The notes under the pieces were generated by a model. It saw only the letters and a program-made list of their open reading frames with translations, did not search any database and was not told the origin of the DNA. Position numbers and translations under genes: made by a program. From the NCBI RefSeq assembly GCF_964204645.1, contig NC_134026.1, forward strand, positions 19,846,467 to 19,910,466: a stretch of 64,000 nucleotides of DNA. The letters are read 5' to 3'. Positions within the stretch are counted from its first letter, which is position 1; every line of letters begins with the position of its first letter. Shown in pieces: positions 635 to 31,500 of the stretch. The DNA is from Tubulanus polymorphus (taxonomy: Eukaryota; Animalia; Nemertea).

Positions 635-1304
635 GTGAGTGTTTATTTAACTATTACCAAAATAATTGATATGACTGCAAATGAAACTTACATCAAGTGA
701 TATCATTAGATATAAGACATGTGTTTCTCAAGGATGGTTTATATCCAAGGCCACCCAAAACTAAAATTCAAGACCAATCCAAAGACTTTATGCCAAAATC
801 AGGACTGGCTCCTATGATAATCATAGACCAGTGACGAGAAGTGGTATTATAATTCAATAAAACTTGTTCATTGCTGAAACGTCAAAACAATATTTTTATC
901 AATAATAATAATCAATTCAAATTTTTGATTGTCATTAGTAAAAACGTATGGCAAAGATTGGTCGACAAAATATCAGAAATTAATGAAAGTGTCTATCTAA
1001 GTTCGCCAAAAATGCCATCCAAAAAAAGATTGAAGACTACAAAATGAAAATGCAATGCTAAATTCAAAGCTTTTTAATGCAATGAAAATTTTTCTGATTC
1101 AATGCATTTCAAGGACTGCAATGAACCCTAGTGAGTTCCTATCAGTCAAAACCAGGACTATCAGGGGCATGACTCATTTTAGATTAACACTTTGAATTGA
1201 TATATCTGTGGGGGGGGGCACTGATATCAAATCTAAGGATATCAATATCGATAATTGTCTACTGTGTTTTGTCCTTACGTCTCACATTTGGCGTCGGATT
1301 TCAG

Positions 1305-1524
1305 GAGTATTAAACGTGTCATATTCTACTCGTTAATTAAACCGAAGATAAACGAAAAAGGCGATAAAGAAATGGATCTGATAAGCACTTCGCAGGCGTT
1401 GCAAATCGGCGGTCGAGCTGGGCGTTACCGAACTCATTTCCAAGACGGCGAGGTTACGACATTTCGCCGCGAAGATATACATTTATTACACGATCTTACC
1501 AATAGAATCGTCGAACCACTCGAG
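1305..1524 (+). CDS. SUPV3L1: SUPV3L1 exon: [73 protein letters not shown]
   Basis: Acceptor tttcag at 1299-1304; donor GAG|gtaaaa. Matches human [43 protein letters not shown]... Confidence 0.9.
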
Positions 1525-1671
1525 GTAAAATTATGCGAGGCCAGTTGTACAGTCATGACTTGAGACAAACTTAGCTAAATGCAAATCTATACATAAGTTG
1601 AAACCTCGATTCCTCTTAGTTAGAATGTTCGTTTTAGTTAACTGTATATCTTATTTTTCATTATCTGATAG

Positions 1672-1752
1672 CAAGCTGGATTACATCCTACTGCCGAACA
1701 AATTGAGCTTTTCGCCTACCACTTGCCAAATGCAACCCTGTCCAACCTTATT
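1672..1752 (+). CDS. SUPV3L1: SUPV3L1 exon: [27 protein letters not shown]
   Basis: Acceptor ctgatag; donor ATT|gtaagt. Matches human [27 protein letters not shown]. Confidence 0.9.
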
Positions 1753-1844
1753 GTAAGTAATGCACAAACCCTTCCATGGGAAGGGTAGAAAATTGGCCCC
1801 TTTTTGTTTAGAGTTGCATACGGTTGGCCGACAATAGATAAGCA

Positions 1845-2085
1845 ATTTGAGTGTTCTTACATTACGGAAGGCATCCTGTTACCTGTAGATAGTTTTGGAT
1901 TCAATTCAATTCTAGTGGACTTAGAAATATTTATCTTCAAATTCGGATTCAAACCTATCGAGCATTTTGAATGTACTTACATTACGGAAGGCATCCTGTT
2001 ACCGGTAGATAGTTTTGGATTAAATTCAATTCTAGTGGACTTAGAAATATTTATCTTCAAATTCGGATTCAAACCTAGGCATCCT
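1845..2085. repeat. Two-copy tandem duplication of about 120 bp inside a SUPV3L1 intron
   Basis: 1846-1965 and 1966-2085 are near-identical (gagtgttcttacattacggaaggcatcctgttacc...). ORF 1804..2100 is a translation artefact of this repeat. Confidence 0.9.
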
Positions 2086-2140
2086 CCCTTTTCTAGATAA
2101 CGGCGTATACAATGATCTAATACTATCCTCATTATTTCAG

Positions 2141-2320
2141 GATATATTCGTGACATTGTCTCAGTTGGATAATGACACGTATTTCATGTGCAACATCGAT
2201 GATTTTAAGTTTTTAGCTGATATGATCGAACACGTGCCGCTCGCGTTGAGGGTACGTTACGTGTTCTGTTGTTCGCCGATCCCAAAAAAACAGCCGTTCG
2301 TCTGCACAATGTTCCTCAGG
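2141..2320 (+). CDS. SUPV3L1: SUPV3L1 exon: [60 protein letters not shown]
   Basis: Acceptor ttatttcag; donor AGG|gtgagt. Matches human [54 protein letters not shown]. Confidence 0.9.
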
Positions 2321-2822
2321 GTGAGTTTTACTATAAAGGCTTATCGACGCAAGAGTTAAAATCCGGGGCCAGTTGCCCAAAATTTGGTTAAAGTTAACCA
2401 GTGGATAAATACCAAATAACAAGGAACTTTCAATTGTCATTATGCCAACTATCCAGTGGTTAACTCTAACCAACTTTTGAGCAACTGACCCCTGTATTGT
2501 AGCATATACAAATGATCAAATCCACAGAGCATTTATTGGAGCCGCATGTCTTAACCCTCTTTGTGCGTCCACGCAGTGCGGTGTATAAATCCAATATGTG
2601 ATGGGCTTAGCTAGTAAACCGCATTGCAGTGTATTGATGTTAGTGAAATATTAACAATAGTAGTACCAGTTATTGTTGACATGATGAAATATTAGTAACT
2701 AATGATATATTGCGCTGTGGTGTAGATGCACTAAAATGGTATGCCTTGAATTTGATGTATTTGTATGTTTGAAAATGTTAACATTTATCAAATCTTAGAA
2801 TTTCTTGCCTTTTTGTCGTCAG

Positions 2823-2971
2823 TTTGCCAGGCAATTTAGCCAAGGAGAGCCACTAACGTATGACTGGTTGTGTAGACAAGTGAATTGGCCGTTCAACACT
2901 CCTGTTACTATCACTGATCTGGTACACTTGGAAGGAGTTTTTGACGTAATGGACCTATATTTGTGGTTGAG
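2823..2971 (+). CDS. SUPV3L1: SUPV3L1 exon: FARQFSQGEPLTYDWLCRQVNWPFNTPVTITDLVHLEGVFDVMDLYLWLR
   Basis: Acceptor ttgtcgtcag; donor AG|gtacgt. Matches human [50 protein letters not shown]. Confidence 0.88.
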
Positions 2972-3162
2972 GTACGTACAGCGGTTTATGCTACAATCCG
3001 GTTTATGCTACAATCCGAAATATTTCTAAGTCTACTGTACTGTATTTCTTAATTTTTCTAGTATGGATGATATTAGAATCCAGGCAAGATATGTGGCTCA
3101 CGTTCGAGGTGCATAACATTTTGCAGACACTTTTGAAATCTCTGCTCTTCCATTTTTTTCAG

Positions 3163-3664
3163 TTATCGCTTTTCGGACATGTTCCCAGATACCGACCACG
3201 TGCGAGAAATGCAAAAACAACTGGACAACATAATACAGGAGGGGGTGATCAACATAACGAAACTGTTAAAAAAAGGCAACACCTTGACTCAGAGCGCGGC
3301 GTCGATCGACTCAACGGAATTAACGTCGACTGACAATCGCAAATCGAACGCTTCGAAAGCAGGATATCTTCGAAAACGCGATAAAACGCTGTACGGCGGC
3401 GGCGAACGGTTACGAATCGTTAAATCCGAACACGATGACGTCAACGGCTCGGTGTATTCGTCTCGATTGCAACGCGGCGACGTCGGGAAGGGCCGGCTGA
3501 CCGATCGGCTTTTGAAAGAGGGCCTTCTGACGCACGAGATGATCGAGAAACTCCGAGCGGAATGGACTCAAGATAAACAAACCAGCATATCATCGGCTGC
3601 CGATAGTGATAGTATTAGCGATAGCGAACGTTTACACGATAACTGGAAAAGCGACGATAGGTGA
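3163..3664 (+). CDS. SUPV3L1: SUPV3L1 terminal coding exon, ending at the TGA stop at 3662-3664: (S)YRFSDMFPDTDHVREMQKQLDNIIQEGVINITKLL...
   Basis: Acceptor tttttttcag at 3153-3162; joins in phase 2 with the previous exon. Matches human [35 protein letters not shown]. The C-terminal tail is CpG-rich and low-complexity. Confidence 0.85.
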
Positions 3665-6055
3665 AATGACCCGTTATGCGTGTAGAATCGATTGACATGA
3701 ACATATGTGATTTTATATGGAGGAGCGAGTATTATCTAATAAAACAGCCATTTCTGCCAAAAATATTTTTGTGATCGACTCCATGTTTTGTTACGTGACC
3801 AGGGTTCATAGCAGGCCTCGAAAGTCATGGACTGGGAATAGGTCATTTTATTATTTGGTCTAGTACACCAGTCCTCTTAGAATGACAGTCAGTGGAGATA
3901 TAAATTGTCACTTATATAGCGCAAGGCTCCTTATAATAGTTCAAATGTGCTTCTCTAGAAAATACGTGTTGCTACCACAGAATGGCAAACAGATTTTCAG
4001 GTCCCGTGAAGTTCGTTGTAACGAGGTTCCATTGTAGTTCAAGACTATAACCTATCGTGGGTGCAGCCAAATTGATTTCAATTGAATTGACGTACTGAAT
4101 GGAAGCATTATTTAACTAGGCGAGCAGAATGAACAATTTTTCCTCGGCGAATAATTAGAGAATATTTCGCACCATTATCAGTAGTAAGATGATTACCAAA
4201 ATTGATAGGGGTCGTAACTTGTGTCGCTTCATGCTTGTTCAAAAAGGGAACATTCTTTTAAATCGCCTTTTCAATAACGATGAAATAAGACCGAGGTTGT
4301 ATTTATTTTATCAAAGCACTTTATTGGAAAAATATATTAAAAACGTATTTACAAATGTCACAAAAATAAATGCAAAGGATATACACTAATCAATGAAAAC
4401 GATGTGGTATTTTTATGAAAATGATCACATCAGAGCTGCCCAGGTGAACTTGGGTCTTCTTATATAGTTAGTCTACTTGTGGTCAGAACTTATAACTCAA
4501 TGTGTTACGCTGTTTTAAACAAAAAAGAAGATATGAAAAATGCTGCGACACACAGGCACACTGATTGGTTTTCAATACAATAAAATATGGCCCAAAGCAA
4601 ACAGTGTTTTGGTCATATTCAGGAGATGTTTAGCAGCTTGAGTTACATCAAAACTAAATCGTTTTGTATATGAACAAATTAGATCAACGATGAAGTCCCA
4701 ATGAAATAACGCATTTCAAAAATTACCGTATTACAAAAATATCACAGGAACTAAATGGAAGCATTCAATAAGTACGTGTAAGCAAGAAATTTGGCAAATT
4801 TAGATGGTCCTTAACCTAGCATAGTAAATGAGCACGCCTTTGTCTAGAAACTTAAATCGGGCAATACAATATCAGACAAGTTCAACGAAAAGTCGTCCAA
4901 TTCGATGTCCTGTATCGGCTCATCGATGATGAAATTCGGAACTGAAAAAAACAATTGACATTCGTAAAGTCATTTGTCCTTATATACCCAGGAAGAAAGC
5001 CACTAAATATTTGGATGGATATATGAAAGCTGTGGGTACTGGAGTGTGTAATGGGTAGTGTAGTGTGATCTGTGTGCATTTGTGGCCAGCACACAGATCA
5101 CATTGTTCATTGGGGTTTAGTCCAGGACTCGCGAGATTTTCAACAACACGGAAGTAACGTGTAATAAATGATGACTTGAATTGCATGACTACCTACCACC
5201 CCTCATTATTGTTTGAAAAGTTAACGTTCCGCACTGACTAAAAATTAGTAATAATATTTAATAACATTTTAGAAATGGCCAGAATTTTAACTTAGGTTCT
5301 ATCTCATTTTTATTTTACAATTGCGATTGGTATAATTTTTTTTCAAATGGCCGTTAAGGCTTCATGTTTCGTCTGCAATTCACAGCAAATAGTTACGCAA
5401 CTACGCACATTTCAGTGTTTTTGGCAGCTGTACACTCAATCGGCACCGTTCGTGACTAGCTTCACTGCGGAATTATCATTAATTAACATCGCCATATCAC
5501 ATCATCAACTTATATTGTGCCTTAAAACCCTAACAGCCGAAATAATTGAAATGCACACACGATTTCTATCATTGAAAATTGAGAGAGTGGCCGTGTTTGT
5601 GTTCTGCTGCTTCGCGTAAATCCCGCGCGGTGGCGCAACCGCGCGGAGTGGGGCCGATACGTCTAGTAATGAGTAACAGTGCAGGGGTAGATCGATATAA
5701 TGTAGAATTTTCAAATTTTCGCACCTCCTACCGATTGGATCGCTAATCTCAATCTAGACAGATTGAAATAAGATTCTTAAACATTAACATGGCTTGTGTA
5801 TGAATTTTTAGCTCCAAGGTTTATGGCATAAAAAGGGGACCAAATAATTTTTCCAGCCACTTCTCTCAATATTTTTATGATTTTTCACCGGTTCTTAAGC
5901 AGACACCCATTTTTCAAAAACATTTCGAACAGCCTATTTCTCAAAAGTTTTGGGCATTTCGCTCAAATTAAAGGAGTTTCAACTTTAAAAGCACTTTCTT
6001 TTTAAGGGTTTTTTATGCAATCAATGAATCGTTGGGAACCTGCCATTCTACATAC

Positions 6056-6338
6056 CAGGCAAAGAATCCACGTGTGTTGGTGTGTATTCCTCGTCATCAC
6101 TGTCGTTGTCGACTACCATACACATCGGATACAAGTGCCGCCACGATTTCAACTTATCCATATAGGATGAAAGACAGTGAGCTGGAGCCAAAATATCTCC
6201 AAAAACATCTAAAATTGTAAGATAAAATGTCTTATTACACGTAGGCCTTCTAATTTTACAACTTGGAGTCAGATCCGCCCCTGAAATATTTTCATCACAA
6301 TTTTTCCCAGGAAAGAATTTCAATATTTTCTTCCGCAT
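6056..6338 (-). CDS. Hypothetical minus-strand exon of unknown function. ORF is MRKKILKFFPGKNCDENISGADLTP...DNDSDDEEYTPTHVDSLPG, followed by a gtatgt donor.
   Basis: A 94-aa open frame on the minus strand ends exactly at a CCTG|gtatgtag donor. No recognisable homology. Confidence 0.25.
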
Positions 6339-7479
6339 TTTCTTTTCCTTGGTATTTTTGCCTCTGGTGATTTTTTTTCATCCCTCACATGATTTGAATT
6401 CTATCAACATTACCCTCACTCCATTTTTAGTTTTTCCACAAACCTTCCACGTTCACATGTTGAAAAATACTTGAATTGTATAAAAGTTCTAATTTTTTTC
6501 CATCCATTTTAAAAAGTCTACTGGGTTGAAATGAAACAGTGTAATCATAGAAGATTATTTCCGGGGAATAAGCGGAGAACGTGCATGTATATATCTGATC
6601 AATCTGCTTCCTGAAATCCCTCCTTTAGGACCTCGAGACATTTCTAATGAACATATAAATGCCAGAAATTGGTAATTTGGTAACCATACCTTCAATAAGT
6701 GGAAGGTCAAGACTTGACACACAAAAATACTGAAGGGAGTACAATTACCACTGGCATGAAGCCTTATACAAACCTTCATTAGCTTTGTTTATATGCATCA
6801 ATTCAGTATCATCTGCAGGAGTATTGGCCTGCAAATATATAGGCCTAATATAAGATGCCATGAAAAATTCTTGCCAAAAAAGATCATCAATTACGAAGAA
6901 AAACTGCAAGTAGTGACATTTCAACTTGATTTTCTGAGCCATTTTCAAAACTGATTTAGTAAAAAAACGTAGGCCTACAGTTTTTCCTCGTAATTCAGTT
7001 GATTTTTCTTCAATTTTAGTCTATGAGAACCAACAAAAGCAGTTACAGTACCTTCTTTTCAGTACTAACTTCTTGTTTAGTCGACCGTTTAATATTCAGC
7101 CCTTTCTGCGGCTGTGTGGCGGGTCGGATCGATGACGATGGCTTTTTCATTGTTTTGCCAGCTGCATCCTTCTTCAAGTCCTGTTGTCGTATCTTCAAGT
7201 CTTGATTCACCGTGCCAAGCGCTTTTCTCGGAGTGACCAAACTTTTTTGTCGACTCTGGAAACTTTTACCCGCTTGAAGGAAAAAATTATAGACGTATCA
7301 CCTTTCCAATAACACTAGCGTAGTATAACCTATGCTAAGGTTGCAAGTGGATATTATATCAATGACATAATCAGTTACACAATCATTGATGGTAAGCTTA
7401 CAATCAGAAGGGCTTGAAAATATAATACTATATTAGTGAAACAAAACCACGGTTACTGACAAATGCCAACGCTACATCC

Positions 7480-8830
7480 TTTTTGGCTTGTTCTTAAAAA
7501 ACGCCATTTCCACCGTTTTCAGCTGTTACAGTTTTTAAAACTACATCGCCAGAAACGGCATTTTAGCTTAGATAGTTTTACAGGTGCTATTTATAGTGCT
7601 TAGTTCGATGGGAGTCCCTATTATGACATCATCGCTTTTCTGCTGGCATACATTTGTATATTTGCGCCGAAAAATTAATCTCATTGATCCATTCCAGGCT
7701 TCAAGAAAGAATTAAATATAAATGTACGGGTTTCCGATGGCAAATGTATTTGAATTCTGTTCTTTCTTTATACCTGTATTCTATGTAATAAATATATACA
7801 TACATGTATCCCAAATTGTTTCGAAAATGTTTGTTGTATTTTGAAATGAATCTAGATACAGCTGTATTGATTTTGAGTGTTGTAACGTCATCGGCCACCA
7901 ATTCATTCAATCACTACCCATCACAAGTCCAATTAGCTGGGAGGCATCGAAGATGTTAATTACCTTCAATTAACCAACATCATATGCAGTCCAATATATC
8001 CCTCAACCATTCTATGCTTTATTAGGCAAGATAAGACCATGGGCAAAACTTAAAACTAGATTTTTGATACACTAGTTTATACATGATCCATGATTGATTT
8101 GTCTTATGAGAATGATAATTATAATAATTATTTTATTTTTATTTCTAACATATAATATTTACACATCCGTGCACCTCAGCAAATTAATTATTTTATTCCG
8201 AAAAAAAGTACCCTGTAGACACTAGGGAAAACGTCTAAGCGGGTGGGGGAATCCTCATATATAACAAGTGGACTGCCAATAATGGCTTAATAGTTTATGA
8301 TTATAAAACTAGCTACGCCAAAAACGGCGGAATACGCCAGAAATGGCAAATGTTTTTATGTGTACCCATGGCAACATTTCATTGAAAACTTTATAATAGT
8401 TTTTAAAACTAGTTCCCAAATTTATTTTTAACAAAAATCATGATTAATAAACTTGTTTCATGCTGTAGTAGTTTTGAGAGTTTTCCCGGAGTTTTTGGGC
8501 TGCATATGACGTAATCATTTAGAAAAACGTGAATTTGACCACTTTACCTAGCTCAAAAATTTCCATCCTAGCGTCATATGAAAGCTTATCGTCTGCTCGA
8601 GATTATGACGTAATCAGCAACATGCGCTAATTTGACCGGAAGTGCGCAAAAAACTTTAAAGCAAAACTCGAAACTTAGTGAGCTGAAACTGGCTGATTAA
8701 GCCATAAACGACTGTAAAAGTTTCAAAACTGAGTGATCCATAAACGGCTGATTCTGCCGTTATTGGCGGAAAACGCCGAAATTGGCAGAATAAGCCGTTT
8801 TTGGAAAGTGTTCTAGTCAGTAACCTGTCT
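7480..8830 (-). mobile_element. 5'-truncated copy of a roughly 1.5 kb non-autonomous TIR DNA element, in inverted orientation to the complete copy at 10447-11924
   Basis: 7480-8830 is the reverse complement of about 10447-11796. It retains one terminal repeat (..ggaaagtgttctagtcag at 8830) but lacks the other. No ORF. Confidence 0.75.
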
Positions 8831-10446
8831 GTGGTTTAGTTTCACGATCGGATATTTTCACAAACCACAGTCAGGAATGGGAAGGTCATTTTTGTATGAA
8901 ATCTTCGTCAGCCAATTTGACTGACGAGTAATTTGCCTGGCATTTCATTGTCTCTTAAGATATCCGTCTAATTTTTGCTGTAATCGACGCACAACAGATT
9001 CGTAGTTTGTCTGATACCTATAACACCTCACCTGACGATCTTAATCCATGTGCAAATCGGCCGTAAAGTGAGAGTAAATTTCCGTCCAGTCAACAGCTGC
9101 CATTTTGAAAATTACTGGAGGTGCTGGCACCTGTGGACTGAGGCCAGGACAACAGCACAAACTCACGAAGCGAAACGACGAAATTGAAAAAATTAAGAAA
9201 TCAACACTTATTCCCATTTTTCTTTTACCAAAATTTATTACTTCATTATTTATCTTGGAAAACACGAAGATTTGAAATGTAAGTTGGAAAACCATCAAAA
9301 ATAAAAATTGTCGTTTCGTCTTGGAAGTTTTATAAAAATCCTTGTAGGTCCCCTTGTCTTATCATGCCACATGTGCAATACAGAGAAATGGCGGCTAATG
9401 GCGAAATTTGCTGAGAAATTAATTAATTTCTCAAAATAATGTTGATTAATCACTCGAAACATACATAAAATTGGATTATTTCGAAAGGTACCTGTGTTAG
9501 TTTGTGAATTAAGCCATTAATTATGGACTGAAGTGAATAGAAAGTATATTTTTGAAGTGTTACTTTTTTCAACCGAGTTTTGGTCCTTGTCATCCCTAAC
9601 GTTGGTATAAGCCCATCCGATTATAAAAAGCTTACCACCAACGATTAGGTAACTAACTAGAAAGTGTTCCTGACTGCTTACCAAAATAAAAATGCCAGGC
9701 CTTTTTAAGTTTTATTAGTTAGAAATTTTGACAGTAGACCTACCTCTCAATCCTGGATTGCCGCCATATCGAGGTCTTGTAACTGAGGCATTTTCCTTAT
9801 CTTGGTACGCATCGATAAGAGAAGCCATAGTTTTTTGTTGTGCCAGGAAAAAGTGTAAAAAAGTAGTACGGTGATTTTAAAAATTCGAACCGAGCTCCAC
9901 ACGAATTTGGTTTGGTAAAATAGAAAATGCGGATTCAGAATAGTTGGTGCTTTCGAGTCAGGGATCAGGGTTCCGAGGCCACAACCGGCATATAGGAAGC
10001 ACTTGCATTACGCAATCACGGAGGTACTTTTTCATTCTTAAAAAGTGTTTTCTTAAACAAACTTTCTTAAAAGGCTTGAAAAATACTGAAATAACATCAA
10101 TTCATACAAGCTCTGTGGTTGTGGCAGATCACCCTACTATAGAAAATGACGATTGATTATATAAACTGTAAAATAGAGAATTACACCAAAAATGGAGTTC
10201 TTCGTACCGCCGGCCTAGTCTTTGAAACCAAAAATGGCGGCTTATTCAATCGGGTTTAGCAATCATAGCGATCAAATCGAAGTTCAGACAGCATACTCTG
10301 CATCAATGCGGGACCCTACCCTACCCAGGCACACCTCTCCACTAAATCCTGATTTCTCGACCATTTTCTATCGAAAATTTTCAGCTGTCGCATCACCATA
10401 TTTAGGTTTACCCTTTTTCCTAGTTTTACTACCTTACTGAAATTGT

Positions 10447-11924
10447 CAGTCAGGAACACTTTCCAAAAACGGCTTATTCTGCCAATTTCGGCGTTTTCTG
10501 CCAATAACGGCAGAATCAGCCGTTTATGGATCACTCAGTTTTGAAACTTTTACAGTCGTTTATATGGCTTAATCAGCCAGTTTCAGCTCACTAAGTTTCG
10601 AGTTTTGCTTTAAAGTTTTTTGCGCACTTCCGGTCAAATTAGCGCATGTTGCCGATTACGTCATAATCTCGAGCAGACGATAAGCTTTCATATGACGCAA
10701 GGATGGAGATTTTTGAGCTAGGTAAAGTGGTCAAATTCACGTTTTTCTAAATGATTACGTCATATGCAGCCCAAAAACTCCGGGAAAACTCTCAAAACTA
10801 CTACAGTATGAAACAAGTTTATTAATCATGATTTTTGTTAAAAATGAATTTGGGAACTAGTTTTAAAAACTATTATAAAGTTTTCAATTAAACGTTGCCA
10901 TGGGTACACATAAAAACATTCGCCATTTCTGGCGTATTCCGCCGTTTTTGGCGTAGCTAGTTTTATAATCATAAACTATTAAGCCATTATTGGCAGTCCA
11001 CTTGTTGTATAAGAGGATTCCCCCACCCGCTTAGACGTTTTCCCTAGTGTCTACACGGTACTTTTTTTCGGAATAAAATAATTAATTTGCTGAGGTGAAT
11101 GGATGTGTAAATATTATATAATAAAGATAAAATAATTATTATAATTATCATTCTCATAAGACAAATCAATCATGGATCATGTATAAACTAGTGTATCAAA
11201 AATCTAGTTTTAAGTTTTGCCCATGGTCTTATCTTGCCTAATAAAGCATAGAATGGTTGAGGGATATATTGGACTGCATGTTAAGATGTTGGTTAATTGA
11301 AGGTAATTAACATCTTCGATGCCTCCCAGCTAATTGGACTTGTGATGGGTAGTGATTGAATGAATTGGTGGCCGATGACGTTACAACACTCAAAATCAAT
11401 ACAGCTGTATCTAGATTCATTTCAAGATAAAACAAACATTTTCGAAACAATTTGGGATACATGTATGTATATATTTATTACATAGAATACAGGTATACAG
11501 AAAGAACAGAATTCAAATACATTTGCCATCGGAAACCCGTACATTTATATTTGATTCTTTCTTGAAGCCTGGAATGGATCAATGAGATTAATTTTTCGGC
11601 GCAAATATACAAATGTATGCCAGCAGAAAAGCGATGATGTCATAATAGGGACTCCCATCGAACTAAGCACTATAAATAGCACCTGTAAAACTATCTAAGC
11701 TAAAACGCGTTTCTGGCGATGTAGTTTTAAAAACTGTAACAGCTGAAAACCGCGGAAATGGCGTTTTTTAAGAACAAGCCAAAAATGGCAGAAAACGCCG
11801 ATTTCGGCTAAATTGGCAGAAGCAGTTTAAAACTGAGTAATCCATAAATGGCTGATTCCGCCGTTATTGGCGGAAAACGCCGAAATTGGCAGAATAAGCC
11901 GTTTTTGGAAAGTGTTCCTGACTG
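10447..11924 (+). mobile_element. Complete non-autonomous TIR DNA transposon, 1478 bp with about 95-bp terminal inverted repeats and a 5-bp target site duplication ATTGT
   Basis: Left end cagtcaggaacactttccaaaaacggcttattctgccaatttcggcg...; right end ...cgccgaaattggcagaataagccgtttttggaaagtgttcctgactg. Flanks are attgt (10442-46) and attgt (11925-29). No coding capacity. Confidence 0.8.
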
Positions 11925-11959
11925 ATTGTTATTTGTTATCAATTGCATGTCTTTATCAG

Positions 11960-12082
11960 ATGGAATTTTTGACGCAGTTAAGGGATGGCTGTTGGAACTG
12001 TTTGTGGTATGCGATTATTTTCTATATGACATGGATTTTCTATAAGTTATTTATTCAGCCGTTTCTGTCACCTTTGCGAAAT
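11960..12082 (+). CDS. CYP4-family cytochrome P450, exon 1 (membrane anchor): MEFLTQLRDGCWNCLWYAIIFYMTWIFYKLFIQPFLSPLRN
   Basis: ATG at 11960. Hydrophobic N-terminal anchor. Donor AAT|gtaagt. Phase 0 join to the exon-2 start MPGKPYYPLIGN. Lies 36 bp downstream of the TIR element. Confidence 0.55.
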
Positions 12083-12166
12083 GTAAGTCTCTAGCTCTTA
12101 AACCTCTCTAGTACCGCTGACCACTTTAGCACTTGGTCGGTGTCTTATGGCATTTGAATTTTTCAG

Positions 12167-12221
12167 ATGCCTGGTAAACCGTATTATCCTTTGATCGGAA
12201 ATATGAGAGAAGCTTTGAAAA
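12167..12221 (+). CDS. CYP4 exon 2: MPGKPYYPLIGNMREALK (proline hinge / PGP..LGN motif). The 3' boundary is uncertain.
   Basis: Acceptor tttcag at 12161-66. The only usable donor is AAAA|gtaaag at 12222, which gives phase 1. Exon 3 needs phase 2, so a small intervening exon or different boundaries are required (see finding). Confidence 0.55.
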
Positions 12222-13161
12222 GTAAAGAACCAATGGAGACGACGACAAAGTAATAAACGAGCAGTTGAAACTGATCTTCCGTATCTTGCCGCAAATGCTC
12301 GTCCTCTGTCGACCGGGATTTGAACCAGATGGTATCCAGATGCTACTTGGCCAAAATATCATTATTAGCCAGAAATCAAGTTTCACGCCTGGTTATTCTT
12401 CTATTTTCATCAATCCAACTGGACCTATTCATCAGGCAGCATTTTTTGCTGTGGCAGAACCTTGCGATACCCTCAGGTTTGATTCCTCGCTGAGGGAGGA
12501 TGAAAAATGCAATGTCACAAATCCTTAATAGAAAAATTCCTGCGATAGAATTTTATTCAGAATTTTTACCTTCGAGTTTCGACGATTGAATAAAACGAAA
12601 CCAAAAATGTTTTTGCTGTTAACTAAATGCTGGGTTATGTTGGGCTGGAAAACTTGATTTATCAGTAACTAGCGCCCTAAGGTAGGCGCCAGTTACCATC
12701 TGATCAGCCAACAACTGAACGCAATAATTCTAGCCAATCAGAAATGGACATATACTCAGTAGTACAATGCGTCCTTGTGGTACTAAAATCAGAGTTTTTA
12801 TGTATAGTATATAGCTTAGTATATATCTATTTTAATCTGGTATGAATCTTACAAAATTAGTGGTTTTCATTTTCGATATTTACGTTTGAATTTGTTAAGA
12901 TGAGGAACACAGCGCAAGCCTAAAGGCTGCACTTATAAGTGTGATTATAAGCACTGCCCCCACTGATCAGTCGTAGTTTGGGATGTCGTAGCTTGATATA
13001 AGCTAGCATTAATGCTAGCTAGCCATCATAAGGTGGAAGAAAATTTTATTATCACTTAAATTATATTTTGGGACTTTTTAAACTAGGCCAACCTTGCTTA
13101 AATTTCTGTGAGCTTCGAACTTAAACTGATGCTACTTTTGTTTTTCATCGCTGGAATGTAG

Positions 13162-13299
13162 ATGGATGAAGCGTTACGGTGTTATATTTCGATACTATTT
13201 CTTTCGCGGAATGCCAAGAGTTCTTGTCTCCGATCCGGACATCATGAAATATATCATGGTAACGAATCAGAAGAATTTCGAGAAATCGACTGAGATTGG
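13162..13299 (+). CDS. CYP4 exon 3: (x)WMKRYGVIFRYYFFRGMPRVLVSDPDIMKYIMVTNQKNFEKSTEIG
   Basis: Acceptor tgtag; donor GG|gtacgt. Matches the CYP4V2 region [38 protein letters not shown]. Confidence 0.8.
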
Positions 13300-13698
13300 G
13301 TACGTGCGCAAAAAAAGTATTCATTTACTACAGCGAAATCTTGTTACAATAAACTCTTCACGCAACAGAAAAATAAGTTTGTTCTAACCGATAGTTCGTT
13401 CCAATATGACATTATTATTAAAATTGTCCTATTTGAGATGAAATTCTAGGATTGTACTTCCAGGTAAGTGATAAATTGTAACGAGGGTCCATTGTTAATG
13501 TATAGGAGGATGAGCCCTGTTGTTTTTTGTGGGGAGTTTTTGACCTATGTAGGTCATCCAACAAGGCTGCCAAAGCCATATTTGTAGAACCTTATGTTCG
13601 ACTGAAGGGTTTTGCTAGCATAGCTGTAGTTTCGTTTTGCAAATGTATGCGGAATATATGACATTATATAGCCTATTTGCGTGCTGTTTACATTTCAG

Positions 13699-13805
13699 GC
13701 TTCTTTCATTTGTTCTGCGTAACGGACTCGTCACATCAAATGGTGATGTCCATCGGCAGCACAGGAAACTAGCGAATCCAGCTTTTACTATCAAGTCTAT
13801 TAAAA
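13699..13805 (+). CDS. CYP4 exon 4: (G)LLSFVLRNGLVTSNGDVHRQHRKLANPAFTIKSIK
   Basis: Acceptor catttcag; donor A|gtgagt. Matches the CYP4 motif [25 protein letters not shown]. Confidence 0.8.
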
Positions 13806-14254
13806 GTGAGTGACAACTGTAAACATTGCTTAACTCGGGAGTTTACTGGTAATAGAGTGCAGTTATAACCCAAAAAATTACCATTTCTTTTCGTATTTCT
13901 TACCGTACTTCAGCAGGACCCGCTAAAGAATGACCATTTTGTAATTTCATTTCGGATTTAGCAATTTTGTTTCGTATTTAAGAAGGATCCGCCTAACTCG
14001 GACAAACTGGAATTGGTAAAATTGGTAAAATTAGGTAGTTAAAAGGATAGGGAAATATGTTGAGCAGTCAGAAAAATGATTTAGTTTTTGTCCAAGTAAG
14101 TCAAAAGTCTGAAGTTGGCCATATCCGAGTAAGGCGTGGTTTAACTGTAGTCATGGAAAATGTTGAATGTCTTGATTGGTAAGGCCCCGAGGCTGCAGAT
14201 CGATCACTCGTGAGCCCTTTAATAAATCATCACAACATCTCTGCTGTTGTTTAG

Positions 14255-14376
14255 AGATGATGCCCATATTCAAAAAGAAGAGCGTCGAGTTGGTCGACCT
14301 GTGGACTAGTAAGATGGATAAGAAAATTGACGGCGATAAGTGTATAGTTCCAGTATTCGAAGATCTAATGAGAATG
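14255..14376 (+). CDS. CYP4 exon 5: (K)MMPIFKKKSVELVDLWTSKMDKKIDGDKCIVPVFEDLMRM
   Basis: Acceptor tgtttag; donor ATG|gtatga. Phases are consistent with exons 4 and 6. Confidence 0.8.
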
Positions 14377-14493
14377 GTATGACCTAGTCAACAGCGATGC
14401 ATGCTCACCGCGATAAGTTGTTCTGCTTTGTTTGCTATAATCAAAATTATTTCCAACTTCTGTTGAAGCCGTGATGTGAATGCATATTTTCAG

Positions 14494-14606
14494 ACGTTGG
14501 ATGTTATAGGTTTATGCGCATTTAGTTACAACTTCGACTGTCTTCATGATCCGGACAATGAGATCAATAAGCACTTTCAAGGCGTCATCGGTGGCATTTA
14601 TCCAAG
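14494..14606 (+). CDS. CYP4 exon 6: TLDVIGLCAFSYNFDCLHDPDNEINKHFQGVIGGIYP(S)
   Basis: Acceptor atattttcag; donor AG|gtagac. Matches CYP4 ITLCALDIICETAMG... Confidence 0.8.
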
Positions 14607-15323
14607 GTAGACTAAGGGTTTTATTTCGGTATTGTTTCTTTACAGCCGTATATGCCTTAGCACAAAAAGGGGAAATACGTGACTGAAGTTTATATACAAT
14701 TAACGTTTTATCCTCAATCCTATCTTCTGAGTCAAGATGGACTGTGAACCCTGGCATGTGGCTGTCGAGGGTTCATACCATGGCATCTAAAGACTTTCGG
14801 TTCGAAACCCTGCAAGGATGGATGGTTCAGTTAGCTGTCATTAGCACGGAAATTAACAAATTCCAGGATAATAATAATGATAATAATTACGCGTATTTAA
14901 AGTGCCAGTATCCTCTGCAATTAAGTGATCACTTGACACCTGGCTAGTGGGATAGAATATTATTGAGCAGCTGCCCGTCAAAATAGATGGGTTTGATTTG
15001 CCAGGATTTCTTTTTTGGGAAGGGCGATATAGGGTGAAGAGCAACTGTAAAGAAACCTGTATTCCAACACAAATACCGGGGTAGCAGAAAACATTTAGAA
15101 TTTGATGATCTCATTTTTAGAATTTCCACAGCCACTTATAGAGGGAGGTATGCCCACAGCCCCTGACTCTACCGCTGGGATCTTAAAAAATTGTTTTTCA
15201 TATAACTGAACAATAAACAATAATGAAACCATCCTGTACATTTATATCGTTGTTTTAGCCCACTTGGGACTTAAGTCCCAGTTACTATTATATATGACCC
15301 CTAGTTACTATATTTATTTTTAG

Positions 15324-15457
15324 TTGGGAAATGTTGTTACCTTATTATCAGTACATTCCATTTTTACCAAATATGAGTCGAATGCGACATCATTTGAAAG
15401 CTGCTGATGAAGTCGTTCTTTCCGTGATTCATGAACGTATGGAAAAGATTTCCACCG
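15324..15457 (+). CDS. CYP4 exon 7: WEMLLPYYQYIPFLPNMSRMRHHLKAADEVVLSVIHERMEKIST(G)
   Basis: Acceptor tatttattttag; donor ACC G|gtaagt. The phase only works with this acceptor, not with the nearer tatcag. Confidence 0.75.
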
Positions 15458-15663
15458 GTAAGTCTTGTACATGACATAGAACCACAGTTGACTCGGCGCA
15501 AGTCATGTTTTCGTGACACCTCATATGAAATACATTACATTTAATAACACGGCTACAGTATCTTACATGCCTGACGTATGTTTGTGGTCGCATGACTCGT
15601 CAAACATCGGACTGGTCTGGAAAGCAGAGATTAAACATTTTTGTACTGTCACCTGTTTTACAG

Positions 15664-15791
15664 ATGGTGGGAACATCGATTACGATCTTCTTGGTATGCT
15701 GATGATGGCTAAGGATGAAGAAACTGGACAAGGAATGACTTCTGAAGAACTCAGGGATGAAGTATTGACCTTCCTTTTGGCAGGCCATGAG
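15664..15791 (+). CDS. CYP4 exon 8: (D)[42 protein letters not shown]
   Basis: Acceptor ctgttttacag; donor GAG|gtaggc. Contains the CYP4 signature EVxTFxFxGHE (continued as TT in exon 9). Confidence 0.85.
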
Positions 15792-16448
15792 GTAGGCACA
15801 TGAATGTCGCTCGTCGCTATATCCCTATACTATTGTTAGATTTCGGTATTTGAATATTTTTTAGTACATTAATTCCAAACTTACGTTGCCTTTATTAAGC
15901 TATTACTGATTCCTGATGACTATTAGTTACAGTTGAAATCAATAAATTATTAGCTTAAAAGAAACTGTTTGGACTTCATTTTTCTCATTTTATTAGTGTG
16001 GGATTCTCAATTTATTGTCAAAAAATGGTTGTAGTGTTTATCAGTGGTTTTGGTAATACATCATAGCATTTTGCTCAAATGCTTGCTGCAATTTGTAGTT
16101 GTAATTGTAATTATCTCTAATGAAAATGAATCAAATCAAATAATCTCTAATGAAAATGAATCAAATCAAATAATTTTGAAAATCGTTCCTTGAGATATGG
16201 CCAATTAACAAAAGGCAGAGTTTTGATTTCATGGAGCAAAGTCACAGTGATGTATATCGTTGTATGTATGTATATCGTTAGTCTTAAGTTCATCAGAAAA
16301 ATTTCCCAACTAAAGATCAATTAAGTAAGAAGATTTGCTCAGTTACTGATTTCTTCAGATCTTCAATCAGTTCTAAACTGTTTAACTGATATTTGTTGAA
16401 ATAAACAACACTGCATCTTTGTTCAAATGCCTATGACTCTTTCAACAG

Positions 16449-16624
16449 ACAACCAGTGTCGGTGTAACATGGGTCTTATATCACCTGGCCGATCATATTC
16501 ACATACAAAATCATCTGAGGGATGAGATCCATAACGTACTGATGCAAGAGAACACAAATGATTTAAGCTACGAAACGTTTGAAAAGATGCCATATTTGGA
16601 CGCAGTCATCAATGAAACGCTGAG
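16449..16624 (+). CDS. CYP4 exon 9: TTSVGVTWVLYHLADHIHIQNHLRDEIHNVLMQENTNDLSYETFEKMPYLDAVINETL(R)
   Basis: Acceptor tttcaacag; donor AG|gtaagg. Contains the ETLR K-helix motif. Confidence 0.85.
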
Positions 16625-17997
16625 GTAAGGTGGATTGTATTAATATTGAGTTGTTTCACTATCCGGGGCTGGCAGAAGCAAGTTGACTGGGACTATTTGA
16701 GACCATAGTTTTCTGGTATCATGATTCAGAATGACGATTTATCATTGATCGTTAATAAATGTTATGGATCATAATGTTTTAAACGCATCTGTTTCCAATT
16801 GTACATATACGCTTTCAGGCTTGGGAGCAGGCCTAACTTCAGTTTTTCAATAACCTTCAGGAAAGAAATCATCATGGGCAAAATTGTCGACCAAACCCCT
16901 TGAAAAAAATAGGCCACATTAGTTTTGCCTCTCATGTGATACAGATGGGTGTGGCCTTGGCGAGTGGGTTACTTGGGAAAAAGATGGCGGCTGATTAAAG
17001 CGACAATAATCTGACGTATTACGATGTGGAGAATGTTGGATGTTGCGGTATTGAATGTTGGATGGCAATGCATTTGGGCAAAGTCACCCAATATCGTTCA
17101 TTTATTTGCAACGACCCATGGAGCCGATCTAGGGAAATTGAAAGCCCAGGGTCCAGAAGAGAAGAAAGGCACTGTTCATTCAGTACGTACGCAAAAATAG
17201 GACCTTTTTTCAAGTTCCTACCTTCTGTACGCACATCGTACTATATTGCCGATGACCTTACGTGCTCAATGATTAATCATGTAGTATAAAAAACAAAAAC
17301 AAACACTTGTTAGTAGTCTACTGGTCTGTTTTATTTTTAAAGTATAGATAAATTATTTGAGACTTTAATTACCGTATCATGCCATAAGTTTGCCCCTCTT
17401 GAAGGGATTTACTAGGATGCAGCATTTTGAAAAGGGCAATGAATTCATTATCTTGTTCCAGACTCATGGCTGAATTAATACCTACAGATGAGTAAGGTCC
17501 AGGCTACTACAAAATTATACCGTAGAAATTAGAGCACTTTGATTTTTGAAGTACGTACGCTTTGTGTAAATAGCTAACTAGCTTTGCAGGTAGATCGTAC
17601 GCTTTTGCCGTTGAGGTCGTTGAGGGTTTGCGAACGTACTTAATGAATGGTCCCAAAAGGCATTTCTCGGATAGAGCACCCATGTCAAAGGCCACTCAGG
17701 GTCAACCCCGGATGAGCGTTAAATTTGCAGGTTTCATCGATCTCTTTCTAGATGAAAAGGAGGTTACCTCTGTGGGAAGGCAGGGTCCGGGCCCCTGAGA
17801 CTTCCCCCTAATTCCTGAGAGTGTAATCAAATAAGCATATCAAACAGACTACGTATCTATTTAAGTCAAGAGTTTTTCTTTCCTCGCAGAAATCTAATGA
17901 AAGATGTATGATTTGCATATACATGCATTTAGCGTTGAAAATAGAATAATGAACATTAAAAGGTACTTTCATGCGTTTTTGGCCTTTGTTTATGTAG

Positions 17998-18111
17998 ATT
18001 CACACCTCCAGTTGTTATGGTCGTAAGAAAATCAAAAGATCACGATGTTTTGGGTGGTTACGAAGTTCCTGCTGGTACAAATATTTTGTTAGCAACTGGT
18101 GCTATGATGAG
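17998..18111 (+). CDS. CYP4 exon 10: FTPPVVMVVRKSKDHDVLGGYEVPAGTNILLATGAMM(R)
   Basis: Acceptor tttatgtag; donor AG|gtatgt. Aligns with CYP4V2 [37 protein letters not shown]. Confidence 0.85.
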
Positions 18112-19082
18112 GTATGTTGAGTAAGCTAAACGATGCCACTTTCCAATGTTAATATTAAACTAGATTAATTTGTCTTAACGCTGGTTGAATTTTGCTCAAC
18201 AATGAATACATGGAACCTAACGCAAACATATTATAGATATACCTATAATTTCGTCTCTCAAGAGAAAATTTAGTGAATCTTTATACTGTACTGAATATGA
18301 CGAGCTATCAGTGACCATCCATATCAGATATGATTAAAAATACATAAAGAGCCTCTTTATGTATTTTTGATATCCCCGGTAATGAATAGATTTGTAGATC
18401 GGCTTAAGTTCATTGACAAAAGGTTCCATTGTATTTAGGTATTACTAGGATAGATCAGCGCAGCTTTGTTTGAATATTGTTACTCAGTTATTGTATAGTG
18501 TGTATATAGTATACTGACTTCTAAAGTCCATTCAGTGTTATACTTGATAAAAGCTAAAAAGAAATTATGCCATTATATCGTTTCTCCTAATCAACTTTTG
18601 GTCATTTTGTAAATCGCGATAAAATTTGTAATCACTTCATTTCATTAGCTGATGGGTCTGTTACGGTAAGCTTGATCATGATTTTCAAAAAAGTAATGTA
18701 CAGTGGGTAGATAGGCGACTGGCCGGTTTAACTTTTAAGCTCAGCGGAAAGGAGAAATTAGGTATTTTTTCAGCCTAACAGCTAAACTTATACCTATATA
18801 GATTTATCTGTTTGTAACCACCTCTATCCCAGCCACAGTACTCTCTAATTAACGTATGTTGAATTATTCTACGTCTGGCATGGTCGTTTGTTTTGTGGTG
18901 TATTTCGACCCTGGAGTTGGATCCAAATAAGAATTGGGTATTTCAGCCCTGGAGTTCCATTCGGTAACAATACCATTGTTAATAACAATTATGAATTGTC
19001 TAATCTTTGAGCTCCTGGACTTAAAAGCTTATTGTGAAATAAATAGATATATTGATCTAATAAAATAGCCCAAATGCAGATC

Positions 19083-19135
19083 ATTATGAAGTTTCTGCTG
19101 GTAGAAATATTTTGGTAGCAACTGGTACAGTTTGT
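19083..19135 (+). pseudogene. Decayed partial duplicate of CYP4 exon 10, located in intron 10
   Basis: tcattatgaagtttctgctggtagaaatattttggtagcaactggtacag resembles exon-10 cgaagttcctgctggtacaaatattttgttagcaactggtgct. There is no open frame or splice context. Confidence 0.5.
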
Positions 19136-19419
19136 AGGCTCGAATCCCGGCAGGGTTTCGATCTAGCCTTTCCTTTCCACTCAATTAGGGAAGGGAAACT
19201 TCAAACCTGCCAGTAATGGGTTGAGGGGCGAAAGAAAATGATTTTGACAAAACACACATTCAACATATGCATAGAATCAAGATTCATACAGACATATACA
19301 TGTATAGTCTTAATAAATTTTTCGTAGAATTATAAATTCTTCATTGAACTATTTTAATGCCGGGCTCTCTGATTTGTGATGGTCCTGACAAACTGGGAAT
19401 GCCTACTTCTAAATTCCCA

Positions 19420-19620
19420 TCCTCGCTTGCCAGGCTTTGATTTTGCCTCCCGCCTATGCTCACACCAACACAAACCCTGCCTGCTGAGGCTTTATTGGTC
19501 TATTACACCACCCATGGATTCTTAGGTGGACAGGTTGCCGCTCAGCAGCAATGAAGGGTTTGCGGCCAGGGTTTGTGTTGGCGTGAGCTTCGGTGGGTGG
19601 CAATCCAAAGCCTGGTAAAC
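19420..19620. repeat. Hairpin-forming inverted repeat (MITE-like), about 200 bp, in CYP4 intron 10
   Basis: ctcacaccaacacaaaccctgcc at about 19460 pairs with ggccagggtttgtgttggcgtgag at about 19565. ccaggctttgattttgcc at about 19430 pairs with ggcaatccaaagcctgg at about 19600. Confidence 0.6.
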
Positions 19621-19743
19621 ACGGATGCTACATTCCAAGAGTGAAGCATTCTTATTAGCCCCTCTCCTCTCGCCCCTTGATAGGAATCGCTACTTTTTCT
19701 GTATGAGCACCGATACCACATCTTTGTTAATTTTTTCATTCAG

Positions 19744-20011
19744 GAATGAACAATTTTGGGATGACCCAGATACGTTCGATCCCGACCGATTCTACCGAAA
19801 GGAAGTCGATTCGTCGAAGTTTTTGCCATTCGTAGCCGGTCCTCGTATGTGCATCGGTTATAAATTCGCGTTGCTCGAAATGAAAATGATCGTCGCTCGC
19901 GCGTTGAGGTCGTTTCGATTTACGAAGATCCCCGGCAGCAATTACACGAAAAAGATACGCGTCACCATGAGGCCGGATCCTCCGCTCGAGTTGTATATCA
20001 AAGCTGTTTGA
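19744..20011 (+). CDS. CYP4 terminal exon with heme-binding loop: (R)NEQFWDDPDTFDPDRFYRKEVDSSKFLPFVAGPRMCIGYKFALLEMKMIVARALRSFRF...ELYIKAV*
   Basis: Acceptor ttttttcattcag. Contains the P450 Cys-ligand motif FxxGxRxCxG (FVAGPRMCIG) and the PDRF motif. Stop TGA at 20009-20011. Confidence 0.9.
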
Positions 20012-21444: not shown

Positions 21445-22375
21445 AATCATAACCTGTCGTTCCAGATTATAAAGAATTTTGATGTTTTAGATTTCGAACC
21501 ACTTGTATCTGATGTGCATGCGGCCATTAGAAACAACACCTAATGTCTATTTATTAATTGATGAGACCTGTTTTTCTTGGATATTTTGCTTACTTTTTGG
21601 GGTACATACCTCATTGATGTCTTTACAGAATGCCAAAAATCGCGGACAACAACTGAATATCCGATATATTTCCAGTTCCGTACCAATTAGATGGATTGGC
21701 AAAAAGACTCCTTAAGTCCAGTTGAATGAGAGAGAAAATCCTCCATTTTGTGAAATTTCTTGAATTTTTACATTGTCACCATGCCTACGAAATGAAGTTA
21801 TTTTTCTTGTGGGGTCTCAACAACTAAATCAGGGTGGCGTAGGCATGGTAACAATGTTCAAATCCAAGAAATTTGACAAAATGGAGGATTTTCTCTCTCA
21901 TTCAACTGGACTTAAGGAGTCTTTTTGCCAATCCATCTAATTGGTACAGAACTGGAAATATATCGGATATTCAGTTGTTGTCCGCGATTTTTGGCATTCT
22001 GTTAAGACATAAATGAGGTATGTACCCCAAAAAGTAAGCAAAATATCCAAGAAAAACAGGTCTCATCAATTAATAAATAGACATTAGTAGACAGTTTTTT
22101 AATAAAGAAGTTTCCAGTTTCTAGGTGCCATTTTGTGGCGGTCCCTCGAGGTCCCTATTGTTGCGATAATTTGCGCTCAGTTTTAAAACATAAGTTTAGA
22201 TTGAATATCATATAGTTCTGCAGTCCCTTGCTCGACGAAATCAATTTATACACCATTTTAAAGGAAATGAAATGCAGATATTTGCTGGCGATTCTTGGAA
22301 TTTTTGAACGCAACAATTGAGAACAGTGACGATGTGAAACCAAGGACCGCATATCTTAACCGTGCGTAAAAGAAA
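21445..22375. repeat. Copy 1 of a local tandem duplication (unit about 465 bp, aatcataacctgtcgttccagattataaag...) that carries the foldback insertion at 21543-22084
   Basis: Segments 21445-21540 and 22087-22375 are repeated at 22381-22470 and 22556-22845. Confidence 0.8.
21543..22084. mobile_element. 542-bp foldback/palindromic MITE inserted at a TA dinucleotide. The uninterrupted (empty) target is preserved in the adjacent duplicate at 22551-22560.
   Basis: Filled site: cacc-TA-[atgtctatttattaattgatgag ... ctcatcaattaataaatagacat]-TA-gtagacag. Empty site in copy 2: cacc-TA-gtagacag. The arms (21543-21760 and 21840-22084) are reverse complements; the spacer also carries the small palindrome ttgtcaccatgcctacg/cgtaggcatggtaacaa. 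Confidence 0.85.
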
Positions 22376-22380
22376 TCGCA

Positions 22381-22845
22381 ATCATAACCTGTCGTTCCAG
22401 ATTATAAAGAATTTTGATGTTTTAGATTTCGAACCACTTGTATCTGATGTGCATGCGGCCATTATTTGCGAAATTAAAATCATCAAAAAAATCCACACTG
22501 AAGAAGCCCAACCCGGCAACAACTATAAGATGGAAACAACACCTAGTAGACAGTTTTTTAATAAAGAAGTTTCCAGTTTCTAGGCGCCATTTTGTGGCGG
22601 TCCCTCGAGGTCCCTATTGTTGCGATAATTTGCGCTCAATTTTAAAACATAAGTTTAGATTGAATATCATATAGTTCTGCAGTCCCTTGCTCGACGAAAT
22701 CAATTTATACACCATTTTAAAGGAAATGAAATGCAGATATTTGCTGGCGATTCTTGGAATTTTTGAACGCAACAATTGAGAACAGTGACGATGTGAAACC
22801 AAGGACCGCATATCCTAACCGTGCGTAAAAGAAATCGCAATATTT
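22381..22845. repeat. Copy 2 of the local tandem duplication (carries the empty site). It contains a 78-bp segment that copy 1 lacks.
   Basis: Identical 65-aa minus-strand ORFs (22155..22352 and 22614..22811) are a consequence of the duplication and are not genes. Confidence 0.8.
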
Positions 22846-30905: not shown

Positions 30906-31338
30906 ACTACTGTATACTCTTTACCAATAAGAAGAGGGCTCCAGGAAAAAATCTCAACCTCAGAATGCATCTTGTATACATTTTCTGTTTTACTCCGATG
31001 AGGGGCTTCGTTCTTCGGGCGCTCGCGCAAGCACACACCTAACTTTGGAACGTTTATCGTGTTAAAATGCCAACCCTTTCAGTGGCATAGTCACTAGGAG
31101 TGACGATGAAATCCGATAGATCCTGGCAGTCACCTGCCAGGTGACACGTTACTTACTAACCTACTTACTTTCACTAGATGACAACCAGTCGAATCTGGCT
31201 GCTCAAACTTAATGTCTTACAGTCGTTTAAATGCTCTAGTACTGATAAAAAGTGCTGGCTATGTTTTTTATTAGCAAACTAGGTCATGTAAACAAATACG
31301 TGACCTAAATTTGACATAAGGAATGAAAAGATAGATAT

Positions 31339-31500
31339 GTGCATGTCGGATACGAATTCGTGTTGCTCGGATTGAAAATGATCGTCGCTCACGTGGTGGA
31401 AGTCGATTTACGAAGATCTCCCGATAGGAATTACATGAAAAAGTTACGAGTCGCACCAGATCCTCCGCTCGAATTGTACATTTTAGCTGCTTTTAGAATG
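31339..31500 (+). pseudogene. Pseudogenised fragment of the CYP4 terminal exon (heme-loop to C-terminus), about 11 kb downstream of the intact gene
   Basis: MHVGYEFVLLGLKMIVAHVVEVDLRRSPDRNYMKKLRVAPDPPLELYILAA versus intact MCIGYKFALLEMKMIVARALRSFRFTKIPGSNYTKKIRVTMRPDPPLELYIKAV. Indel, heme Cys lost (MHVGY), and no acceptor context. Confidence 0.7.

Follow-up and report, generated by a model that had tools for sequence, protein, structure and literature searches.

Transposons at the 5' ends of cytochrome P450 (P450) genes are a known route to altered expression of detoxification enzymes. In Drosophila, the Accord element lies upstream of Cyp6g1. Insertions of transposable elements (TEs) next to P450 genes form a recognised pattern, for example at the P450 loci of Helicoverpa zea (PMC1852546). 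In this study, we analysed a 64,000-nucleotide window from the ribbon worm Tubulanus polymorphus (Nemertea; NCBI RefSeq assembly GCF_964204645.1, contig NC_134026.1, positions 19,846,467 to 19,910,466 of the forward strand), in which a 1478-bp element with terminal inverted repeats (TIRs) ends just short of the start codon of the P450 gene LOC141900394. Positions given below are those of the window. As in the Helicoverpa zea loci and with Accord, the 5' end of a P450 gene has a transposon directly next to it or within ~1 kb; those cases come with allele comparisons or expression data, whereas here we have a single haplotype of a gene with no known tie to detoxification and work from sequence alone. 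The 4.6 kb upstream of LOC141900394 contain at least four transposon insertions, and we consider it probable that the region is a small nest of class II (cut-and-paste) insertions. The structure is real yet ordinary, a known kind of transposon arrangement. A clean ribbon-worm case would extend the pattern beyond insects.

A complete non-autonomous element next to the P450 start codon

Repeat finding, BLAST, and reading of the boundaries delimited a complete element, called copy B here, with a target-site duplication (TSD) on each side.

10447-11924, plus strand: copy B, a complete non-autonomous TIR element of 1478 bp (repeat finding, BLAST, and boundary reading; no open reading frame (ORF) longer than 72 aa)
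10447-10548, plus strand: left TIR of copy B, 102 nt, 95.1% identical to the right TIR, with copies of TGGCNGAWWHNGCCG spaced at 19 bp
11824-11924, minus strand: right TIR of copy B, 35 bp short of the ATG (repeat finding, BLAST, and motif scan)
10442-10446, no strand: left copy of the TSD of copy B, ATTGT (boundary reading and BLAST)
11925-11929, no strand: right copy of the TSD of copy B, ATTGT (boundary reading and BLAST)

The element starts with CAGTCAGGAACACTTTCC and ends with GGAAAGTGTTCCTGACTG, its termini being CAGTCAGGAAC...GTTCCTGACTG. With slashes at the edges, its boundaries read ...GAAATTGT / CAGTCAGG...CCTGACTG / ATTGTTAT..., and ATTGT stands exactly at both; from the base composition, we estimate the probability of such a match by chance at ~0.0014. 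The TIRs measured 102 nt with 95.1% identity by BLAST and 100 nt with 95% identity by repeat finding. The original prediction, made from the letters of the window, had described a complete, non-autonomous 1478-bp element with TIRs of about 95 bp and the 5-bp TSD ATTGT, ending 36 bp before the ATG. Repeat finding and BLAST agree with it almost to the base, and no ORF of more than 72 aa overlaps either copy B or a second copy of the element, copy A, which is described below. The last base of the element is 11924 and the ATG begins at 11960, which leaves 35 bases between them, also in agreement.

Copy B has the marks of a class II non-autonomous element, namely TIRs at its exact ends, a flanking TSD, and no transposase ORF. 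Copies A and B (n = 2) moreover share their terminal base and have different flanks. Each of the ~100-bp TIRs is a series of 19-bp units carrying the 15-nt motif TGGCNGAWWHNGCCG. When up to one mismatch was allowed, this motif matched 17 times in the 64-kb window, where 0.33 matches are expected by chance, and 16 of the 17 matches fell within copies A and B. The motif arrays are probably transposase binding sites, and such a putative array could help to find the autonomous partner of the family. Rfam and tRNA scans of positions 3600-12500 gave no matches; hence, the elements are not SINE-like (short interspersed nuclear elements) or derived from non-coding RNA. In Nemertea, the main element may be the first non-autonomous family to be described that makes 5-bp duplications.

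An inverted second copy is split by a nested insertion

Upstream of copy B lies a second copy in opposite orientation, shortened at its outer end and split near its inner end.

7480-8813, minus strand: copy A, an inverted copy of copy B without the 139 bp that match 11786-11924 of copy B (repeat finding and BLAST)
8814-9659, no strand: nested non-coding element of 846 bp within the TIR of copy A, with imperfect 13-bp TIRs TAGTCAGTAACCT / TAGTTAGTTACCT and no long ORF
9670-9676, minus strand: last 7 bp of the TIR of copy A (CCTGACT-G terminus), displaced by the nested insertion; the true end of copy A
9677-10446, no strand: 770 bp of non-repeated sequence between the copies (self-BLAST and terminus reconstruction)

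The BLAST alignment of copy A with positions 8-1339 of copy B had 1339 columns, gaps included, and showed 97.4% identity. The 1334 aligned bases contained 23 mismatches, 15 of them transitions, which corresponds to ~1.7% substitutions. The homology seems to halt at 8813, 7 bases short of the terminus of the element, and the missing 7 terminal bases recur, after a second GAAAGTGTTC, at 9660-9676. The intervening sequence starts with TAGTCAGTAACCT, ends with an imperfect reverse complement of the same string, and is flanked by the 10-bp duplication GAAAGTGTTC at 8804-8813 and 9660-9669. When its 846 bp and one GAAAGTGTTC were removed, the terminus of copy A read ...GGAAAGTGTTCCTGACTG and was identical to that of copy B over the 40 last bases compared. 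This precise restoration of the terminus, together with the 10-bp duplication, identifies 8814-9659 as a nested insertion of a different non-coding element.

The true end of copy A is therefore 9676, where the flank is CTTAC, compared with ATTGT at copy B, and once this end is counted the copies are separated by 770 bp. The original prediction was right about an inverted, end-shortened copy upstream, but it had placed this copy 1.6 kb from the first because the nested insertion had been overlooked. Before copy B inserted, the 770-bp stretch adjoined the 30 bp next to the ATG. A self-BLAST of the window found no copies of the element besides A and B, exact 24-nt terminus scans of metagenome and viral collections gave no match, and neither did a phage megablast, as expected.

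Copies A and B are two separate insertions of one non-autonomous family, ~0.8 kb apart and in opposite orientation; copy A was later hit by the unrelated 846-bp element with its 10-bp duplication and lost 139 bp at its outer end. That there were two transposition events follows from the A-B homology, which halts exactly at the terminus, from the different flanks, and from the spacer, which is not palindromic. Since the copies lie near each other in opposite orientation and one end of copy A is missing, one could suppose instead that copy A arose as a partial inverted duplication of copy B through an error of replication or repair. We regard this as highly improbable. With the nested insertion removed, the intact end of copy A is the exact terminal nucleotide of the element, which transposition would produce and a random breakpoint would not be expected to, and self-BLAST found neither homology reaching into the flanks nor a palindromic spacer. 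A segmental inverted duplication was likewise rejected, given the unrelated flanks and a homology that reaches exactly to the end of the element.

A transposase acting in trans would have mobilised the family by binding the 15-nt motif, present every 19 bp in both ~100-bp TIRs, and by cutting its target with a 5-bp stagger. The closeness of A and B would fit re-insertion nearby, or several insertions into open chromatin at the 5' end of the gene. Their divergence of 2-3% does not tell whether one copy gave rise to the other by hopping locally or each arrived from another place.

The nested element and its miniature relative

We found a short relative of the nested element 18 bp outside the shortened end of copy A.

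7368-7462, no strand: ~95-bp miniature relative of the nested element, inverted, with both ends kept (0 of 300 shuffles reached the alignment score of either end)

Possible degenerate flanking repeats, AATGACA and AATGCCA, were seen at this miniature.

The 10-bp duplication GAAAGTGTTC of the nested element falls within the 9-11 bp TSDs of Mutator-like elements. These are further characterised by long TIRs and a MURA-type transposase partner, and in the nested element we found only the imperfect 13-bp TIRs. Compared with Mutator-like MITEs (miniature inverted-repeat transposable elements), the nested element is alike in its 10-bp TSD and its lack of coding capacity, but it has short TIRs that match imperfectly (at 11 of 13 positions) where those of Mutator-like elements are typically long, and one full copy was seen.

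The terminus of the nested element (TAGTCAGTAAC) and that of the 1478-bp element (CAGTCAGGAAC, 10447-10457) match at 9 of 11 positions, with TSDs of 10 bp and 5 bp, respectively. The string CAGTCAGGAA also occurs within the nested element at 8868. The resemblance between the termini of the two elements could be due to chance or to a distant relationship.

Affiliation of the main element

Several groups of TIR elements were considered on the basis of their published TSDs and termini. Elements of the Harbinger/PHIS group have duplications of 0-4 bp, typically 3 bp in Harbinger, and Ginger2 elements have TSDs of 4-5 bp (PMC10045372). Transib elements combine a 5-bp TSD and a preference for GC-rich targets with invariant CAC termini (heptamer CACAATG, spacer, and A-rich nonamer), and hAT termini invariably have G in third position, with CAG/TAG...CTG/CTA ends (PMC1131882). 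The wider CACTA-Mirage-Chapaev-Transib clade has 5'-CA..TG-3' termini and TSDs of 2-5 bp (PMC12730594). Within hAT, a group named hAT5, present in invertebrates and fish, has a 5-bp TSD, whereas other hAT elements have 8 bp (PMC12730594, PMC9004415); the group is attributed to Kapitonov & Jurka 2007, as cited in PMC12730594.

We rank hAT5 first because the main element has a 5-bp TSD, CAG...CTG ends with G as the third base, and an AT-rich target. It also shares an invertebrate host with this group, the likeness being to the published description of hAT5 and not to a consensus. Its subterminal motifs are rich in ACGG/CCGT and recall the binding sites of the Ac transposase. On these features, we assign the family tentatively to the hAT5 group of the hAT superfamily, as the best of several candidates and not as a firm placement. 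A number of points weigh against the assignment. The inverted repeats are ~100 bp long, whereas hAT elements usually have short TIRs of 10-25 bp, and the hAT pattern YARNG expects G as the fifth terminal base, which is C here. No transposase or autonomous partner for the main element was found within the window, so that the superfamily call rests on the TSD length, taken from one duplication, and on three terminal bases. Indeed, the two copies examined have one TSD between them, so the TSD length comes from a single insertion.

Transib, or another member of the CACTA-Mirage-Chapaev-Transib clade, ranks second and is an unlikely alternative to hAT5. The 5-bp TSD is a hallmark of Transib, and the CA...TG ends of the main element together with this TSD length are those of the clade; subterminal repeat arrays, too, are typical of CACTA elements and count for this affiliation. 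Unlike Transib, however, the element has the termini CAGTCAGG, with CAG in place of CAC, no heptamer-spacer-nonamer layout and no nonamer at the expected spacing, and its target, ATTGT, is AT-rich and not GC-rich. An origin in some uncatalogued group also seems unlikely to us, and we give little weight to a Mutator-like lineage, which we rank third. The original prediction had taken the 5-bp TSD as a sign of PIF/Harbinger. The main element resembles this group in being a non-autonomous TIR element of MITE-like design, but a TSD of 5 bp lies outside the 0-4 bp of the PHIS elements and the typical 3 bp of Harbinger and is a trait of Transib and hAT5, so this suggestion was dropped. Ginger2 was rejected on its termini, which are expected to be TGT..ACA where CAG..CTG was seen.

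The P450 gene

The gene downstream of copy B was identified by an exact spliced search.

11960-20011, plus strand: the Tubulanus polymorphus P450 gene LOC141900394, whose 11 exons have GT-AG borders; exon 1 covers 11960-12082 (exact spliced search)

The 11 exons reproduce XP_074643376.1 (isoform X1, 501 aa) at 100%. A protein search with a rough concatenation of exons also led to the 'uncharacterized protein LOC141900394' of Tubulanus polymorphus. RefSeq places the start of isoform X1 at this same ATG, at 11960. Exon 1 encodes an N-terminal membrane anchor and an SPLR-xPG hinge and aligns with homologues from Lineus, Helobdella, and molluscs, in keeping with the start codon and first exon proposed earlier. 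The protein matches PF00067 with E = 1.8e-100 and has the haem-binding motif FxxGxRxCxG as FVAGPRMCIG at 19829; it is a P450.

The more specific label of CYP4, which the original prediction had attached to the gene, did not hold up as well. Among solved structures, CYP3A5 (163.8 bits), CYP97A (163.7 bits), and CYP3A4 (~159-161 bits) scored about as high as CYP4B1 (154.4 bits) or higher, CYP46A1 reached 143.6 bits, and identity to proteins automatically named CYP4-like (CYP4A4-like and CYP4X1-like) was 34-35%. By P450 nomenclature, membership of the CYP4 family goes with more than 40% identity to CYP4 members; we found neither this level nor a clear best match to CYP4. The I-helix signature of CYP4 is EVDTFMFEGHDTT, with the haem-linking Glu, and the I-helix of the LOC141900394 protein reads LAGHETT. 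Judged by these comparisons, the CYP4 label is not specifically supported.

Homologues of the protein carry 4-15 more N-terminal residues than isoform X1. We considered that copy B might have severed an older N-terminal extension and rejected this, as an in-frame TGA lies 7-9 nt upstream of the insertion site in the joined pre-insertion flanks (read by hand). A second isoform, X2 (XP_074643377.1, 431 aa), starts within exon 3, at window position 13162 onward, with Met71 of X1 (MKRYG...), so that either its 5' end should differ or exon 2 should be skipped.

Within intron 10, a fragment of a short ORF (~19064-19140; HYEVSAGRNILVATGTVCR) resembles exon 10 (GGYEVPAGTNILLATGAMMR) and has the look of a duplicate exon in decay. 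The Lineus homologue has an in-frame duplicate of the exon that matches exon 10 of LOC141900394.

Promoter, intron, or passenger at the 5' end of the gene

A short gap separates the right TSD copy from the start codon.

11930-11959, plus strand: gap of 30 bp between the TSD and the ATG, with an out-of-frame ATG at 11947 and the acceptor-like tgtctttatcag directly before the ATG

The insertion of copy B leaves the P450 reading frame intact. With only 35 bp between the element and the ATG, a transcript would either splice in from an upstream non-coding exon or start inside copy B or at its edge, and the insertion is tolerated in both scenarios. Readthrough of the element by transcription from further upstream is less likely, since it would give the transcript many upstream ATGs. 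The bases before the start codon, tgtctttatcag followed by ATG (caattgcatgtctttatcag followed by ATGG), resemble the ten verified acceptors of LOC141900394, so that the element may lie in an intron of the 5' untranslated region (5'UTR) and not in the promoter. We favour, with reservation, an arrangement in which an upstream non-coding exon would be spliced to 11960 at this site and the transposons would sit in a 5'UTR intron.

In its broadest form, this reading makes the element a passenger without effect, whether it sits in an intron of the 5'UTR or simply between genes, and puts the promoter and a non-coding first exon further upstream. We think that this may be the case, with the same reservation as for the splicing. 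Besides the resemblance of tgtctttatcag to the acceptors of the gene, the terminal CCTGACTG of copy B includes CTGAC ~38 nt upstream of the acceptor AG, a branch-point-like string (consensus YNYURAY); the ORF is intact, and two isoforms are annotated. On the other side, no upstream exon was identified in the sequence, although the next coding-looking sequence upstream ends near 3664 and leaves room for one. Alternatively, in line with the supply of regulatory sequence that the original prediction had considered, copy B could itself provide the core promoter and transcription start, with the part of the element next to the ATG forming a TE-derived 5'UTR. The gap of 35 bp means that a start within it would put the -30 region inside the terminal repeat, and a canonical-looking CTATAAATAG is present in the element at ~11670-11680, at a distance of 280 bp from the ATG. 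P450 genes often have TE insertions next to them, some of which drive expression (PMC1852546). The same acceptor-like bases before the ATG argue against a promoter in copy B, as do the upstream ATGs at ~11719, ~11758, and 11947 (the last out of frame) that a start near 11700 would place in the 5'UTR, and the TATA-like string is a single match without statistical support. This alternative is doubtful in our view.

A further step, for which we see little probability, would be co-option of copy B, with its TIR serving as core promoter, start, or branch point for the ATG exon, and with the 1.33-kb inverted arms of A and B being transcribed into a long hairpin whose small RNAs act back on either the P450 gene or the transposon family. 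If true, TEs would have built a regulatory module here, and in a phylum in which gene regulation is essentially unstudied. Taken as a record of insertion history only, the locus is of value chiefly for annotation and for building TE libraries. It also calls for caution, as a naive window of 1 kb upstream may misplace the LOC141900394 promoter.

Other features of the window

Upstream of the transposon-rich stretch, ORFs on the plus strand at 1255-3664 resemble the 3' exons of an SUV3-type RNA helicase (...QIGGRAGRY...), although they gave no Pfam match. They probably belong to the next gene upstream, which would leave ~8.3 kb of intergenic sequence before the P450 ATG.

Just downstream of the P450 gene, the 548 bp at 21540-22087 equal their own reverse complement at 91.6% and form a foldback palindrome. 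Tandem duplicates adjoin it: 22544-22841 is 99% identical to 22085-22382, and 22380-22464 is 100% identical to 21445-21529. The palindrome is probably one more repeat of the foldback type. Some 4 kb beyond the gene's downstream end, two adjacent plus-strand ORFs at 24112-25321 match RVT_1, the second with E = 3.3e-14 and the first more weakly (E = 3.4e-05; 24.1 bits, below the Pfam cut-off of 29.6 bits); this looks like a degraded retrotransposon of the type without long terminal repeats (non-LTR).

Further downstream, at ~31330-31500 (also 31534-31614 and 33212-33363), a degenerate version of the last P450 exon and the sequence following it shows 76.6% DNA identity to 19846-20009. Its translation reads ...GYEFVLLGLKMIVAH...APDPPLELYILA, without the haem cysteine region, and the likely source is a tandem duplication of which a pseudogene remnant is left. 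On the minus strand, a 90-aa ORF at 32143-32415 (...HDIAPTDFFQWGHLKERIY...) had no Pfam match but resembles the C-terminal part of a mariner/Tc1-type transposase. At 49458-50510, a single-exon ORF encodes a G protein-coupled receptor of the rhodopsin family (7tm_1, E = 8.3e-43).

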